Below are positions 7,891-51,041 of a stretch of DNA of 64,000 nucleotides, one piece after another; position 1 is the stretch's first letter; the number at the start of each line of letters is the position of its first letter. Under the pieces are notes generated by a model, which saw only the letters and a program-made list of their open reading frames with translations, was not told the origin of the DNA and did not search any database. The DNA is from Patescibacteria group bacterium (GTDB taxonomy: Bacteria > Patescibacteriota > JAQUNI01): positions 548,062 through 612,061 of the forward strand of contig JAQUNI010000001.1 in the NCBI GenBank assembly GCA_028717685.1, given 5' to 3'. The position numbers were made by a program, and so were the translations under genes.

Positions 7891-8589
7891 CTAGCGGGAT
7901 TTACTATTGAGTTGGGCTTTTTTCCCTTTCAGGCCTTTGATCAGCTGATTTAAAGTGATAAAAATACCGAGGAGCAAGATGATTAGGAAGGGGATAGTCA
8001 TATTCAGTCTCAACGTAATCATAAAATTGTAGGCTCCATGGATGATGATGGCAATTAAAAGCCCGCGCAGGATTAGCTTTTTTTCCTCTTTCGGGTTAAA
8101 GCGGGCGCGACCTAAGTAATATCCGACAATACCAGAGGTTAAGGCATGCATTAGGGTGGCGGTAAAAAAGCGGAAGAGAATAATAGAAGGACCGCTGCCT
8201 AAGGTGGCCATCAGATTTTCCAGGGAAGCGAAGCCTAGACCCGCGACCGTGCCATAAATGATCCCGTCCAATCGTTCGTCAAATTCAGGGCGGCGGTAAA
8301 CCTTTCTTTTGATGACAAGATATTTTAAATACTCTTCCACCGGCGCAATCACGAGAAAAGTCCCCCAGATAATTTGACCGATGCTATTATTATCCGAGTA
8401 AGGCATAATGTAGTCCACGATAAATTCCAAGGCGGCTGCCGGTATGGTCATCAACATACCCCAGATGAAGATTTTAAAGACGAGCTTTAAGGGTTCCGGC
8501 TCTTCACGATCCTTGCGGCGATAAAAAATAAGCCAAAAAATTCCCGGCGAGAGCGCGATCAAGATGTAGAATAAAAGTCGCATAATCAA
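7891..8589 (-). CDS. PrsW-family intramembrane metalloprotease
   Basis: 232 aa polytopic protein carrying the PrsW signature motifs EEYLK, FASLEN, HALTSG and HGAYN. Confidence 0.7.
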   Translation of the reverse strand: MIMRLLFYILIALSPGIFWLIFYRRKDREEPEPLKLVFKIFIWGMLMTIPAAALEFIVDYIMPYSDNNSIGQIIWGTFLVIAPVEEYLKYLVIKRKVYRRPEFDERLDGIIYGTVAGLGFASLENLMATLGSGPSIILFRFFTATLMHALTSGIVGYYLGRARFNPKEEKKLILRGLLIAIIIHGAYNFMITLRLNMTIPFLIILLLGIFITLNQLIKGLKGKKAQLNSKSR

Positions 8590-45275: not shown

Positions 45276-45475
45276 GTTGTGGATAACTTTTGAATCCATT
45301 GTTCGATTGTTCCATTGCTCAACTGTTACAGGTTCATTTTATTTTCCAAAAGATAAGGTCAACAATCGAACAATAGAACAATTGAGCAATCAAAATTCAA
45401 GACAGGATTAAATCCAATAAAAAAATAACCTTTAAGCGATGTTAGGTTATTTTTTATTTTCGTTATTAAAAAATT

Positions 45476-46945: not shown

Positions 46946-47449
46946 TCAAAGCACTTCTTCTTTTAGGATCTCTTCCAATTTTTTATCCAAGTCTTCCATT
47001 TCAGCTTTAGGCTCTTTAGAGGTTTTAGAGATTTTTTTCTTCTCGGAGGGCGCTTCTTCTTGGGGAAGAGAGATTGATTTTTCAGCCTCTGGCTTAGGAA
47101 GAGCGGGTTCAGCTTGTTCTATAATATTTTCTTTTTCTTCGCTCTGAATGGCAGTTTCTTTTTCCTCTGTGACCGCTGTTAACAAAAATCTTAAGAGATG
47201 GACTACAGATTTCAGTTTTTTATCTAAAGAATCTACTTGATCTTTATTTAATTTAAACCAGGTGATATGATAATAACCTTGTTTAAAGTGTTTAATCTTG
47301 TAAGCCAAATCTTTCAGTCCCCAATATTCTTCTTTCTTAATCTCGCCACCCGATTCTTTAATAATGTTATTCGCTTGGGCAATTTTTTCCGCCGCTTCCT
47401 TTTCAGAGATTTGTGGCGAAAAAAGATACATTATTTCGTATTTGGGCAT
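46946..47449 (-). CDS. rpsF: 30S ribosomal protein S6, with an acidic/Lys-rich C-terminal extension
   Basis: N-terminal MPKYEIMYLFSPQISEK… matches S6; first gene of the rpsF-ssb-rpsR unit. Confidence 0.9.
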   Translation of the reverse strand: MPKYEIMYLFSPQISEKEAAEKIAQANNIIKESGGEIKKEEYWGLKDLAYKIKHFKQGYYHITWFKLNKDQVDSLDKKLKSVVHLLRFLLTAVTEEKETAIQSEEKENIIEQAEPALPKPEAEKSISLPQEEAPSEKKKISKTSKEPKAEMEDLDKKLEEILKEEVL

Positions 47450-47693
47450 TATTTTTCTTCTATTTTTAACAATATTTATATGGTAAATAATAGCAGAGAA
47501 ATTTTAAAAAAGCAAGGATAATGTCTGAATCTGGATTTTGGAATTTGAAATCCAGATTAAAGTTCTTTCTATGAAAAATCCATATTTTGGATTCAAGGTT
47601 TAAGATTCTGTCCTTTATTCTCTTGCTAAAGTCATTAAAAGAGAGTATAGTGTTTTTATTAAAATTTAATTTTGAGATTTTTAAAGTAAAAAT

Positions 47694-49127
47694 ATGAGAA
47701 TCAATCCTTTCGTTTTCAGAAACTATGATATCAGGGGCATTGTGGGCAAAGAGCTAGATAGCGAGAAAGTATACGCAATTGCCAAGGCGTATGGAACTTT
47801 TTTACAAAGAAGAAAAATACGCCAGGCAGTAATTGGCAGAGATTGTCGGGTGAGCGGAGAAGAATTTAAAAAAGTATTTATTAAAGGTCTTAGAGAGATG
47901 GGCATTGATCTTATTGATATTGGTATGGTGATGACGCAAATGATGTATTACGCGCAATACCGTTTCCAGACCAATGGCGGGGTAATGATTACAGCCTCTC
48001 ATAATCCGTATAATTTTAATGGATTTAAGCTGGGAATTGGTTTTTCCCTGACAACTGGGCCGGAGGAAGTGCAGGAGATAAGAAAAAATACTCAAACCGA
48101 GCGGTATTACGTTTCAAAAAAGAAAGGTTCTATCACAAAAGCTGACATCAGAGAAGATTATTTTAATGATGTTTTAAAGCGTCTTCGTTTAAAGAGAAAG
48201 TTTAAGGTTGTCGTTGATTTTAGGCATGGAACACCCGCTATGTATGTTCCTGAACTTTTCAAAAGAGCGGGTTGCAAACTGATTTTACGCAGAGAGAATG
48301 TGGATGGCAATTTTCCGGCGGGGACCCCGGATCCTACTGATGAAAAATTCATCAGGGAACTTGGCAAGGTTGTTCTTGCCGAGAAAGCCGATTTAGGACT
48401 CGCATTTGACGGCGATGGCGATAGGATAGGAATGGTTGACGAAAAGGGAAATATTTTATGGAATGATGTTGTGGTGGCAATTTTCGCGCAAGAAATATTA
48501 GAGAGATTTCCTAATTCAAAAATTATTTATAATACGCTTTGTTCACAGGTGGTTCAGAAAGTTATTAGTCGGAATGGCGGGATTCCGATGATGTGGAGAA
48601 CCGGACACTCATTTATTAAGAAAAAAATCGCTGAAGAGCAAGCCGCATTCGGAGGAGAACTTTCCGGACATTTTTTCTTTAATGATAATGCCTATGGTCA
48701 TGACGATGGAACATACGCCGCATTGAGAATTTTAGAGTATTTATCTGATAAAAAGCTTTCATTGAGTAAATTGTATCAAAGTTTTCCGCGATATATTTCC
48801 TCGCCCGAGATTAAGATTGGATGCGCGGATGAGAGAAAAGTCGCTGCTGTTGCGGATATTGCTAAAAGGTTTAGAAAGGATTTTCCGAACGCAAAAATTA
48901 CTGACGCGACAGTTATTCCAGGAGATGATGGAACACGCGCTGATTTTGATGATGGTATGATGATTTTTAGATATTCTCAAAATGGCCCATATATTACGGT
49001 CAAATTTGAAGCGCGGAGCAAGAAAGTTTATGATAAGCGGAAGAAATATGTCCGGGAAATGCTGGAAAGATATCCTGAAATGATTTGGGAAGACCAGCTG
49101 TGTGTTAATCTTGAATCACTTCAGTAA
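47694..49127 (+). CDS. Phosphohexomutase (phosphomannomutase/phosphoglucomutase family)
   Basis: Active-site TASHNP, metal-binding DGDGDR, sugar-binding GELSGH and phosphate-binding motifs. Confidence 0.9.
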   Translation: MRINPFVFRNYDIRGIVGKELDSEKVYAIAKAYGTFLQRRKIRQAVIGRDCRVSGEEFKKVFIKGLREMGIDLIDIGMVMTQMMYYAQYRFQTNGGVMITASHNPYNFNGFKLGIGFSLTTGPEEVQEIRKNTQTERYYVSKKKGSITKADIREDYFNDVLKRLRLKRKFKVVVDFRHGTPAMYVPELFKRAGCKLILRRENVDGNFPAGTPDPTDEKFIRELGKVVLAEKADLGLAFDGDGDRIGMVDEKGNILWNDVVVAIFAQEILERFPNSKIIYNTLCSQVVQKVISRNGGIPMMWRTGHSFIKKKIAEEQAAFGGELSGHFFFNDNAYGHDDGTYAALRILEYLSDKKLSLSKLYQSFPRYISSPEIKIGCADERKVAAVADIAKRFRKDFPNAKITDATVIPGDDGTRADFDDGMMIFRYSQNGPYITVKFEARSKKVYDKRKKYVREMLERYPEMIWEDQLCVNLESLQ

Positions 49128-49208
49128 ATAAATACCGCAAGAATGATTAGTGTTGTTTATACCTCTTGTGGATAATTTTTTTGACTCTCTATTGCAGAGT
49201 ATGATAAA

Positions 49209-49243
49209 GTATGATAGTATCATATTGAATCATACTTTTTTTA
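49209..49243 (+). terminator. Rho-independent terminator after the phosphohexomutase gene
   Basis: Stem agtatgat / atcatact followed by TTTTTTTATT. Confidence 0.5.
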
Positions 49244-49317
49244 TTAACAAATTTTTTAAAAGTGGTTAACAGACCCCCTCCAACCTCCCCCTTGGTAAGG
49301 GGGAGAAAATTATAGCG

Positions 49318-50160
49318 ATGTCCAGAGAAAGATTAACAATTACCATTAACAAACGACTCATCGGCTTATTAGACGATTTTATTGACGGTGAGAAGATCCG
49401 CAACCGTTCGCACGCGATTGAGTATCTTTTGAGTAAAACGCTGGCGCCCAAGGTTTCGCGCGCGATTATTTTAGCGGGTGGCCAAGGCTTAAAAATGCGG
49501 CCTTTTACCTATGAAATGCCGAAGTGTTTGATTCCAGTGCGCGGCAAACCTCTTCTCGAGCACACTTTGGATTTATTAAAGAAATATGAAATCCGCGACA
49601 TTGTGATTACGATCGGACACCTGGGAGAGAAGGTGCGGAATCATTTTGGCGACGGCTCGCGGTTCGGGGTAAAAATTACCTATGCGGATCAAGGAGAGGG
49701 TTTTCGGGGGACGGGCGGCGCTTTGAAGGTGGCAAGGAATCTAGCGGGACATCCTTTTTTGCTTTTCTATGGAGACGTCTTAGCAAATATTGATTTAAAT
49801 GATTTGATTGACTTTCATAAAAGCCATGGCAAAACAATGACGATGGCTTTAACGAGCGTGGAGGATTCATCGGTTTGGGGAGTGGTGCAGCTTCACGGCT
49901 CCCAAATCCGGGATTTTGTGGAAAAGCCTAAACAGAGCCAGAGATTATCGCGGCTTATCAACGCAGGGATTTATGTCGTGGAGCCTAAGATTTTTGATTA
50001 TTTCCCCGGAAAAAATATTTTTCGCCTGGAAGAAGATGTTTTCCCAAAGCTCGCGCAAAGCGATGAACTATATGGCTATCCTTTTGAGGGGCAATGGTTT
50101 GACATTGGCACGCCTGAAATTTACGCGCGGGTGATTAAGGAGTGGAACGGGATCAAATAA
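49318..50160 (+). CDS. Sugar-1-phosphate nucleotidylyltransferase with an N-terminal ribbon-helix-helix (CopG-like) domain
   Basis: Residues 1-45 (ERLTITINKRLIGLLDDFIDGEKIRNRSHAIEYLL) match the RHH beta-alpha-alpha pattern. The remainder is an NTP-transferase fold (ILAGGQGLKMRP…, GTGGAL, YGDVL). Just upstream, a hairpin ctccccc/gggggag includes the RBS. Confidence 0.7.
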   Translation: MSRERLTITINKRLIGLLDDFIDGEKIRNRSHAIEYLLSKTLAPKVSRAIILAGGQGLKMRPFTYEMPKCLIPVRGKPLLEHTLDLLKKYEIRDIVITIGHLGEKVRNHFGDGSRFGVKITYADQGEGFRGTGGALKVARNLAGHPFLLFYGDVLANIDLNDLIDFHKSHGKTMTMALTSVEDSSVWGVVQLHGSQIRDFVEKPKQSQRLSRLINAGIYVVEPKIFDYFPGKNIFRLEEDVFPKLAQSDELYGYPFEGQWFDIGTPEIYARVIKEWNGIK

Positions 50161-50250
50161 ATGAAAAATTGTCTCGCTATGCGAGATCTGGCGGAGCCAG
50201 AAAAATGAAAAATGCAAAATTGCAATGCAAAATTAAAAATTGAATAAGAG
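50161..50250. repeat. Composite palindromic intergenic repeat element, copy 2 (reverse orientation relative to copy 1)
   Basis: AATGAAAAATTGTCTCGCTATGCGAGATCTGGCGGAGCCAGAAAAATGAAAAATGCAAAATTGCAATGCAAAATTAAAAATTGAATAAG. The core differs from copy 1 at about 4 positions. Confidence 0.55.
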
Positions 50251-50390
50251 ATTTTTTAGATTGCAGGGTTGCGTTTTTTATTTTTTTGATCAGTTCTTTT
50301 TTAAGTTGGTTTAAATCTTTGATTTGAACCAAAATGGTTCTTTATGATTTATGATTTGGTGGTATTGGATTTTTGGATAAGGGAGGAGCA

Positions 50391-50657
50391 ATGAGATCTT
50401 TTGATGAGGTTAAACAGGATATCTTGAGTCAGATTGAGCACGTGGCGTCAGTAAGATGCGATAGTACAGTAGCGGCTTGCTCTTTGAGGCGGAGAGAGAA
50501 TATAAAATTCAGAATAAGTGGAGGGAGTTGCCCTGGAGCAAAGAGTGTTTGTGACGATGTGGAAGGCGCTTCTTCTATCCAAGGGCTGAAAGATAGCTTA
50601 GGCAGTCTAATGTGCGTTCAAACAATGTTTGGAGATATTTTGAAGGAGGGTGAGTAG
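50391..50657 (+). CDS. Hypothetical small protein, 88 aa, Cys-rich; first of a three-gene cassette
   Basis: RBS GGGAGGAG 6 nt before the ATG. Five Cys residues (…VRCDSTVAACSLRR…GGSCPGAKSVCDD…LMCVQ…). Confidence 0.4.
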   Translation: MRSFDEVKQDILSQIEHVASVRCDSTVAACSLRRRENIKFRISGGSCPGAKSVCDDVEGASSIQGLKDSLGSLMCVQTMFGDILKEGE

Positions 50658-50869
50658 TGGAGGAGGAAGAAATTTTTGACATTTTGCCTAGGCCCACAAA
50701 GAATATTAGTGCCGAGGAGATTCAGATGGCACTAATTGAGCTGCAAAATGCAGGAATAAAAACTTTTATGGGGGGTTATGATGTAGAAGCTTTGTTGATG
50801 TCAGTTTCAGAAGAAGGGGGGCAAGATGAACTTGGGGAAGTATATAGAGAATCTCAAGAACGATCTTGA
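50657..50869 (+). CDS. Hypothetical small, highly acidic protein, 70 aa, GTG start overlapping the upstream stop
   Basis: RBS GAAGGAGGG; start coupled to the stop of the previous ORF (TAGTGG). Begins MEEEEIFDIL. Confidence 0.35.
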   Translation: MEEEEIFDILPRPTKNISAEEIQMALIELQNAGIKTFMGGYDVEALLMSVSEEGGQDELGEVYRESQERS

Positions 50870-51041
50870 GAATGGGGGCGTGGCAGATGATTCGGTCGCT
50901 GTACTTTGTTATATTACAGCAGCGAATCGTGCTAAAGAAGTTATCCAAGCAGGCGGACCAGAAAAAGAGACTGCTCAAAGTTTTCTAGATCTTTGTATGC
51001 AGTCAGGCTGTGAAGGTTTAAGAACTGTTGTAGCTCTATAA
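50826..51041 (+). CDS. Hypothetical small protein, 71 aa, four Cys; overlaps the previous ORF by 44 nt in another frame
   Basis: RBS GAAGGGGGG before the ATG; C-terminus …LDLCMQSGCEGLRTVVAL. Confidence 0.35.
   Translation: MNLGKYIENLKNDLENGGVADDSVAVLCYITAANRAKEVIQAGGPEKETAQSFLDLCMQSGCEGLRTVVAL

Follow-up and report, generated by a model that had tools for sequence, protein, structure and literature searches.

Here, we describe a gene at positions 49318–50160 (+ strand) of a 64,000-nucleotide stretch of contig JAQUNI010000001.1 (positions 548,062 to 612,061) from a Patescibacteria group bacterium, hereafter the window, that encodes a 280-residue fusion of a ribbon-helix-helix (RHH) domain to a sugar-1-phosphate nucleotidylyltransferase. 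We propose, with a probability of roughly 78%, that this fusion is a bifunctional trigger enzyme that represses its own promoter together with neighboring sugar-phosphate genes. A preliminary description of the DNA had suggested that the enzyme auto-regulates its operon, and this idea is supported by a candidate operator, GTATGATA-N2-GTATGATA, which overlaps the gene's promoter and is conserved upstream of orthologs from many Patescibacteria lineages and beside archaeal homologs. The operator, which that description does not mention, is the most telling feature of the locus.

The open reading frame (ORF) begins at 49318 (start MSRERLTITINKRLIGLLDDFIDGEKIRNRSHAIEYLL), and the previously proposed gene start at 49270 takes in the leader. 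The RHH domain occupies residues 1–47 (49318–49458, + strand) and comprises a beta-strand, RLTITI, and two helices (residues 12–25 and 30–42); the nucleotidylyltransferase domain, recognized by Pfam, occupies residues 48–280 (49459–50157, + strand), and its signature loop AGGQGLKMRPFT begins 5 residues past the end of the RHH domain. Helix 2 of the RHH ends at residue 42 and the first enzyme strand starts at residue 48, directly ahead of the loop that binds the nucleoside triphosphate (NTP), and the two domains are therefore tightly tethered. Among full-length orthologs, the best 120 clusters all span 98–100% of the query at 53–100% identity, so that the N-terminus is not an annotation artifact of a mis-called start. 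Relatives of the fusion protein are encoded in 401 species-representative genomes. Annotation pipelines name the orthologs merely "nucleotidyltransferase", and the RHH domain has been missed in hundreds of genomes.

By its profile matches and predicted fold, the N-terminal domain is a genuine RHH domain. A single-sequence PDB search with window residues 1–47 returned NikR only, as a weak match (E = 0.65), and PF01402 (RHH_1) was matched by 21 of 22 ortholog N-termini, with a best E of 1.1 × 10−6. When a profile of the ortholog N-termini was compared with the PDB, every match was an RHH protein, including E. coli NikR (E = 3.7 × 10−4), CopG (0.021) and P. horikoshii NikR (0.037). AlphaFold models of the whole protein (predicted local distance difference test score, pLDDT, 86) and of residues 1–47 alone (pLDDT 80) both show residues 1–11 as extended, followed by helices 12–25 and 30–42; the beta-strand is unformed in the monomer model, as expected for an RHH fold in a single-chain prediction. 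In a Foldseek search the N-terminal model superposed on the RHH domain of E. coli NikR: the top three matches were E. coli NikR chains (probability 0.99, template modeling score 0.76, root-mean-square deviation 1.2–1.7 Å, 33–36% identity), and later matches were mostly other RHH proteins (MazE-mt1, CdbA, ParD, PrpA and Reg576). Together with the Pfam assignment of the remainder, these profile and fold matches uphold the original description of an RHH domain fused to an ordinary NTP-transferase.

The RHH domain is also the best-conserved part of the protein, with a mean column identity of 73% vs 63% overall in a 30-sequence alignment, in which T7, I8, D19, D23, I27-R28-N29-R30-S31-H32-A33 and E35 are invariant. 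In the profile alignment, the family residues R5, T7 and T9 fall on R3, T5 and T7 of NikR, and the NRS that opens helix 2 falls on NikR's NRS. In the 2006 NikR-DNA structure of Schreiter and colleagues, R3, T5 and T7 reportedly make base contacts.

Upstream of the fusion gene, the candidate operator core GTATGATAAAGTATGATA (49199–49216, + strand) contains GTATGATA twice in direct orientation, at a period of 10 bp, and two inverted copies, ATATGATA and GTATGATT, follow on the minus strand (49218–49235). Direct and inverted copies make up a four-site palindrome, AGTATGATAAAGTATGATAGTATCATATTGAATCATACT (49198–49236), an inverted repeat with 19-nt arms that are 84% complementary and that is kept in three related loci (L004, L005 and L006). 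The half-sites are GTATGA at 49199 and 49209, TCATAT at 49220 and TCATAC at 49230, and the centers of the four sites in 49199–49235 are 10–11 bp apart. The pattern TATGA-N5-TATGA occurs only twice in the window, on the plus strand at the core and on the minus strand over the inverted copies. A consensus scan predicted a sigma-70-like promoter at 49181–49210 (+ strand), with a −35 element TTGACT (49181–49186), an 18-nt spacer and a TG-extended −10 element TAAAGT (49205–49210); the operator overlaps the spacer, the −10 element and the predicted start site.

Conservation was evaluated in the upstream regions listed for 79 orthologous loci, which derive from many candidate phyla and encode proteins with 51–98% identity. 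At 44 of 78 orthologous loci, TATGA-N5-TATGA lies on the coding strand and precedes the start codon by no more than 260 nt. The 45 matches in 19.9 kb of upstream sequence, compared to 19 in 936 kb elsewhere (both strands), correspond to a 111-fold higher density, and Markov-resampled upstream regions contained a mean of 0.05 matches. Positions outside the search pattern are conserved as well, giving the consensus tttGTATGATAnaGTATGATAat. A −35-like hexamer, TTGA[CT]N, precedes the first repeat, with its end 9 nt away in 19 cases and 5 nt away in 8, which places the repeats in the spacer and −10 region. In the window and in L006, L004 and L005 (98%, 91% and 81% protein identity), promoter and operator align nearly perfectly while the stretch from operator to ATG is unalignable, so that the conservation exceeds what shared ancestry would leave. 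Most motif copies elsewhere in the loci precede neighboring genes, namely those for phosphofructokinase (PFK), a PfkB sugar kinase, a guanylate-kinase-like protein, a HAD hydrolase or the conserved ~330-residue protein described below. A general promoter feature is excluded, as the motif is nearly confined to the fusion gene and its neighbors and occurs also at archaeal promoters.

A scan of a metagenome collection for the exact 18-mer GTATGATAWAGTATGATA yielded at least 120 loci. Among those listed, the 18-mer lies directly upstream of bacterial RHH-enzyme genes in 7, between glpX (class II fructose-1,6-bisphosphatase) and an archaeal RHH-enzyme gene or the contig end in 13, and 4–26 nt upstream of small ParD-type RHH antitoxin genes in 6; the other loci listed resemble chance matches or simple repeats. 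The archaeal copies are located 36–105 nt upstream of glpX and 53–192 nt from a divergent gene for a 284–298-residue RHH-NTP_transferase protein, which has a phosphoglucomutase/phosphomannomutase (PGM/PMM) gene directly or closely downstream of it. This archaeal protein has the N-terminus MKER(V/I)TITLDKNLISQIDKRIDG..IKNRSQEIE and matches the window protein along its entire length at 48% identity; its database relatives are labeled Woesearchaeota, Nanoarchaeota or Nanoarchaeia and are all annotated as nucleotidyltransferases. At the loci examined, glpX is followed by genes for a class I aldolase or DeoC-family protein and for archaeal glyceraldehyde-3-phosphate dehydrogenase (GAPDH).

The divergent order is fixed in L145 (5096–10593), L207, L208 and L209, with GAPDH-aldolase-glpX on one side and RHH-enzyme-PGM/PMM on the other, the aldolase being DeoC-type in L208 and class I in the other Woesearchaeota/Nanoarchaeia loci. 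Their control region measures ~100–145 nt, and two elements resembling a B recognition element and TATA box (BRE/TATA-like) flank the operator; in L145, the operator (8206–8223) sits between two such elements pointing in opposite directions. Three Woesearchaeota/Nanoarchaeia loci chosen by their protein rather than by the motif all share this gene order and carry the operator, two with exact operators and one with GTATGATGAGATATGACAA. A further set of archaeal loci, assigned to Altiarchaeota or to an 'uncultured archaeon' (L032, L035, L041, L050, L051, L057 and L067), encodes proteins of the bacterial-type IRNRSHAIE form at 53–57% identity, and TATGA/TCATA sites in their upstream regions are partial or rearranged, as in TCATATATTGTAGTACGCTATATGA of L050. 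This pattern suggests inter-domain transfer with some operator drift.

The operator of E. coli NikR is GTATGA-N16-TCATAC (PMC7055735). The GTATGA half-site in the window is identical to that of E. coli NikR, and the arrangement of the sites differs. The antitoxin loci retrieved with the 18-mer (L112, L122, L156, L161, L179 and L201) lie on contigs of 57–63% GC, from high-GC bacteria, and encode the strand ER(M/V/L)TITL; these predicted ParD-type antitoxins are an independent case in which the same strand is paired with the same site. An R-x-T-x-T strand accompanied by GTATGA sites is thus common to three unrelated RHH contexts: NikR, ParD-type antitoxins and the fusion family. Given the conservation of the motif and the match to NikR in both strand and half-site, the RHH domain is the likely reader of the motif.

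Several observations weigh against the proposed autorepression. At 34 of 78 orthologous loci there is no strict motif directly upstream; some of these genes follow uppS within an operon, and at others the sites are degenerate. We infer DNA binding by the fusion protein from co-occurrence alone. Window residues 1–47 on their own gave zero Pfam matches, below any threshold, and the Foldseek E-values of the N-terminal model are weak (0.07–0.18), which is attributable to the shortness of the domain. In two motif-associated proteins (L099 and L108), K-x-A-x-T (KIAIT) replaces R-x-T-x-T, and any code by which strand reads site is therefore not strict; with RISIT in L082 and L083, such beta-strand variants are too few for a conclusion on covariation with the operator. 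The catalytic competence of the proteins from candidate phyla radiation (CPR) bacteria, which have Lys in place of the loop Arg, is assumed. The window palindrome may also terminate the PGM/PMM transcript. Finally, the archaeal operator is upstream of both BRE/TATA-like elements, an arrangement compatible with either activation or repression.

Computation established that the two domains are fused, that the N-terminal domain has the RHH fold, and that the motif is conserved and specific; from these results we infer DNA binding, repression and a ligand. In the mechanism that we favor, the protein would oligomerize through its enzyme domain, and the RHH domains of two subunits would come together as a two-stranded beta-ribbon able to read GTATGA(TA) sites. 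Neighboring GTATGATA sites would then be occupied by RHH pairs lined up along a single DNA face, which would close the promoter; because the four sites cover the spacer, the −10 element and the start site, bound protein would obstruct RNA polymerase, resulting in autorepression. In related genomes of Patescibacteria, the operator would act likewise before genes for PFK, a PfkB kinase, a HAD phosphatase and a guanylate-kinase-like protein, and in Woesearchaeota it would also serve the divergent glpX-aldolase-GAPDH genes. The protein may accordingly be viewed as locally controlling the flow of triose and hexose phosphates into nucleotide sugars. Since a tether of ~5 residues leads from the RHH domain to the NTP-binding loop, occupancy of the active site might set the affinity for DNA by changing how the RHH pairs are presented. 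Co-repression by an end product, in a form bound to a nucleoside diphosphate (NDP)-sugar or to NTP, is our favored guess and purely conjectural; we prefer it because in Woesearchaeota the operator would control the entire path that leads from triose phosphate to nucleotide sugar.

The enzyme half of the fusion bears on an alternative that we consider unlikely, in which the nucleotidylyltransferase domain only senses a ligand and no longer makes nucleotide sugar, much as GMPPA serves GMPPB. Pfam assigned residues 49–273 to NTP_transferase (PF00483; E = 7 × 10−42, 144.1 bits vs a cut-off of 21.2). All NCBIfam matches were partial and below the cut-off, the best reaching 157 bits vs 292–440, and they included mannose-1-phosphate guanylyltransferase, archaeal GlmU, MurU, RmlA and others; sugar and nucleotide specificity can therefore not be assigned to a named equivalog (ManC, GalU, RmlA, MurU or GlmU). 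Among solved structures, the nearest chains are 8x7s, a CugP-like UDP-glucose pyrophosphorylase, and 7x8j and 7d72, which are the GDP-mannose pyrophosphorylases plant VTC1 and GMPPB, and Foldseek likewise returned GDP-mannose and UDP-glucose pyrophosphorylases (E = 1 × 10−22). Alignments to the solved enzyme chains did not reach upstream of query residue 42. Homology places the C-terminal domain with the hexose-1-phosphate nucleotidylyltransferases, and within these with the GDP-mannose and UDP-glucose pyrophosphorylases; the GDP-mannose pathway suggested in the preliminary description is plausible.

The loop itself speaks for the loss of catalysis, as the CPR proteins carry GGxGLKMRP (AGGQGLKMRP in the window), with Lys at the canonical Arg position of GGxGxR and Arg two residues on. 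Pseudoenzyme relatives exist as well. A search of 1.84 billion cluster representatives with a profile of the RHH domain only gave 598 proteins at E ≤ 1 × 10−3. The near-full-length matches, checked or placed by size, were mostly the fusion, and many shorter ones were fragments or N-terminal pieces; a class of ~205–224 residues retains the RHH domain next to a degenerate enzyme domain that lacks the GGxGxR loop, and P0138 is similar. Two of these proteins are encoded immediately upstream of a canonical, separate ManC-type guanylyltransferase (L205, 38–1721; L206, 875–4510), which in L206, the locus that extends further, is followed by PGM/PMM and a ROK kinase. GTATGAT is found within ~20 nt of the ATG at all three degenerate-enzyme loci (L204, 285–923; L205; L206). 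Their sequences suggest that these proteins arose from the fusion as pseudoenzyme sensor-regulators. Retention of the RHH domain and GTATGAT beside a degenerate enzyme suggests that the enzyme fold is the regulator's ligand sensor, and these derived relatives link the family to GDP-mannose-type pathways.

In the window's own subfamily, however, K69, D153, E202-K203 and D262, which are reported to be catalytic or substrate-binding positions of this enzyme family, are invariant, as are G54, G55, G57, R61 and P62. The Pfam score is high, the loop of the Woesearchaeota homologs is canonical (GGRGTRLRP), and no second enzyme of the nucleotidylyltransferase type is adjacent to the fusion gene in the window. 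A protein that is both enzyme and regulator is therefore the reading that we retain.

Control that is mainly translational, through a hairpin that sequesters the ribosome-binding site, is distinctly unlikely. The preliminary description had placed a 7-bp hairpin containing this site at 49286–49308. A GC-rich hairpin does exist in the leader, as a perfect 9-bp stem with the loop GGT at 49285–49305 (+ strand; CTCCCCCTT-GGT-AAGGGGGAG); its role in a conserved system did not hold, because it is missing from close relatives. The translational reading can draw on a folding energy of −16.3 kcal/mol and on a 3' arm that holds the sole Shine-Dalgarno (SD)-like sequence, GGAG, 12 nt before the ATG, a spacing within the range of the few SD-bearing genes of the window. 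The stem has no other copies in the 64 kb, where 0.02 such sites would be expected, which rules out a repeated element. On the other hand, the energy in context corresponds to a z-score of only −1.0, and most genes of the genome lack an SD, with an SD-like sequence found within 20 nt of the start in ~5 of 39 larger window genes. An Rfam search of 47400–50500 gave noise only (IRES_Pesti, 18.6 bits vs a gathering score of 180). Above all, the hairpin is absent from the relatives with 98%, 91% and 81% protein identity (L006, L004 and L005), an alignment that rules it out as a conserved regulator; leaders among relatives range from 0 to ~165 nt and contain different hairpins, other palindromic insertions or none. 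In many orthologs 2–27 nt separate the operator from the ATG, which suggests short or no leaders and widespread leaderless or SD-independent initiation. We therefore read the hairpin as a lineage-specific insertion, with a possible local effect on translation outside the conserved system.

The leader appears to be a hot spot for small GC-rich palindromic insertions, which were seen in L006 (2860–3000) and in the upstream regions of L031, L042, L001 and L048. Those in L006 (GTCATTGCGAGGAGT...ACTCCTCGCAATGAC) and in L031 and L042 (GTCATTGCGAGCAAAGCGAAGCAATCC) resemble miniature inverted-repeat elements, and the window hairpin may be the remnant of a similar insertion.

It is very unlikely that the GTATGATA repeats are read by another factor, or are mere promoter or terminator sequence, with the RHH domain serving just for enzyme oligomerization. 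The repeats do resemble a −10 hexamer (TATGAT), and the window palindrome with its U-run is terminator-like: if transcribed from upstream, it would form an 18-bp interrupted hairpin followed by the U-run, at 49196–49245 (+ strand), a possible intrinsic terminator of the PGM/PMM gene, and the RNA fold of the palindrome (−16.7 kcal/mol, z = −4.4) was equaled by 0 of 200 shuffles. A terminator scan omitted this palindrome, probably because its stem is AU-rich. Other candidate factors are also at hand, in the form of a TrmB-like regulator encoded next to the fusion gene in 13 loci and of a DnaA-box-like element that co-occurs with the operator. In the window, this element, TTGTGGATAA (49166–49175, + strand), lies just 5' of the −35 and is an exact match to the complement of the DnaA-box consensus TTATCCACA; close relatives keep both the 9-mer and TTGAC. 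A copy with at most one mismatch was located 23–61 nt upstream of 30 of 62 operator sites vs ~1.6 expected, in loci that include L004, L006, L020, L023, L049, L062, L065, L069, L072 and L073. Exact copies in the window number just two (49166–49175 and 45276–45286, both intergenic), so that the element is not a general promoter feature there, and it may represent a second regulatory input, by DnaA or another factor.

Against a different reader of the repeats, the motif tracks the RHH-enzyme gene across sigma-70-type and archaeal BRE/TATA-type promoters and is nearly absent from the other ~0.9 Mb scanned. Unrelated RHH antitoxins that share the strand also have this 18-mer in front of them, and the half-site is that of NikR, the closest structural relative. 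Most orthologous loci lack both palindrome and U-run, and termination would thus leave the direct repeats unexplained. The RHH domain of the fusion remains the probable reader of the repeats. A fused toxin-antitoxin-like module, as might be suggested by the abundance of RHH antitoxins and by literature reports of nucleotidyltransferase toxins, can be dismissed, since the enzyme family assignment (sugar-1-phosphate nucleotidylyltransferases, not Pol-beta-type) rules it out and, across hundreds of genomes, the gene is retained in synteny with genes of sugar-phosphate metabolism.

The neighbors of the fusion gene in the window are PGM/PMM and tRNA-synthetase genes, which also sets it apart from type II toxin-antitoxin RHH antitoxins. 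PGM/PMM (47694–49127, + strand; all four domains, Pfam PGM_PMM_I-IV) supplies the sugar-1-phosphate substrate. The preliminary description had named this phosphohexomutase correctly and had joined to it an SIS phosphosugar isomerase; the latter link fails, as the SIS match (PF01380) is a partial minus-strand ORF at the window start, 48 kb away. Across 80 loci, the neighbors of the fusion gene include, besides the TrmB-like regulator, PFK (13 loci), PGM/PMM (11), a guanylate-kinase-like protein (9), GAPDH (6) and phosphoglycerate kinase (6). At 18 of the 80, a conserved protein of ~330 residues that is missing from the window is encoded directly 3' of the fusion gene (L001, 4948–5976; L018, 2910–3902; L069, 4211–5242; and 15 others). 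Searches of this protein against Pfam, NCBIfam and, as a single sequence, the PDB gave zero matches; its profile weakly matches protein-kinase catalytic cores, with K55, D157, N162 and D178 invariant, and it may be a small-molecule kinase, perhaps a sugar 1-kinase, that feeds the transferase. In six loci, several of them from Gottesmanbacteria and including L055, L070, L077 and L081, uppS and a mevalonate-diphosphate decarboxylase-like gene directly precede the fusion gene, and the upstream sequence of these four named loci contains no operator of its own. The uppS neighborhood ties the fusion gene to lipid-carrier-dependent envelope synthesis. Downstream of the fusion gene, the window is AT-rich with simple repeats (50160–50370) and then contains three small overlapping or adjacent ORFs of 94, 70 and 71 residues with no Pfam match (50373–51041).

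A broader proposal, to which we give slightly less than even odds, is that a single module of transcription factor and GTATGATA-N2-GTATGATA operator is shared by Patescibacteria and DPANN archaea (Woesearchaeota/Nanoarchaeia), with homologs of the fusion gene in Altiarchaeota. Its RHH-nucleotidylyltransferase would sense the pool of nucleotide sugars or hexose phosphates and would act in each lineage as a principal regulator of the connection between upper glycolysis/gluconeogenesis (glpX, aldolase, GAPDH and PFK) and envelope sugar nucleotides, operating at both sigma-70 and BRE/TATA promoters and giving rise to pseudoenzyme offshoots that are sensors only. Patescibacteria and DPANN archaea are mostly uncultivated, with tiny genomes and few recognizable regulators, and their metabolic control is almost unstudied. 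The present finding offers a regulatory unit that can be tested cheaply: a protein expressible in E. coli, an 18–40-bp target, a few candidate ligands and a predicted regulon. If the operator is used with bacterial as well as archaeal promoters, it would provide a clear example of a regulator that crossed domains along with its binding site, and the agreement of GTATGA with the sites of NikR and of ParD-type antitoxins contributes one more case toward an RHH recognition code. A literature search on the fusion, the motif and the lineages found nothing relevant. Enzyme-repressor fusions such as PutA, BirA and NadR are already known; what appears to be new is the union of an RHH domain with a sugar-nucleotide pyrophosphorylase, together with a defined operator common to CPR bacteria and DPANN archaea.

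Among known systems, NikR is the closest RHH protein by profile and fold, and shares with the fusion the R-x-T-x-T strand, the NRS at helix 2, the GTATGA half-site and the layout of an N-terminal RHH domain followed by a C-terminal domain for ligand binding and oligomerization. The C-terminus of NikR is an ACT-like nickel-binding domain, whereas residues 48–280 of the fusion are an NTP_transferase domain, and the protein is thus not NikR. NikR further differs in recognizing two inverted half-sites 16 bp apart rather than direct repeats 10 bp apart (with inverted copies in this clade), and in responding to a metal rather than, presumably, a sugar nucleotide. MetJ, Arc, CopG and omega act as RHH dimers whose binding to short tandem repeats over a promoter is cooperative; these are small stand-alone proteins, some with small-molecule co-repressors, and none is known to be fused to an enzyme. 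The degenerate ~211-residue RHH proteins encoded before a ManC-type enzyme recall the pair GMPPA/GMPPB, in which an inactive paralog acts as sensor, but GMPPA lacks an RHH domain and exerts allosteric control inside a protein complex, not via DNA. BirA and NadR carry a DNA-binding domain on a nucleotidyl-transferring enzyme and use the bound nucleotide ligand or intermediate as co-repressor; their DNA-binding domains are of the winged-helix or helix-turn-helix type, and their enzymes belong to other superfamilies. Trifunctional PutA has an N-terminal RHH domain on an active metabolic enzyme and represses its own regulon (PMC5293562). Its enzyme and pathway are unrelated to those of the fusion, which bears no sign of PutA's switch by flavin reduction and membrane binding; as an RHH domain joined to proline dehydrogenase and Δ1-pyrroline-5-carboxylate dehydrogenase, PutA nevertheless provides the best functional analogy to the protein described here.

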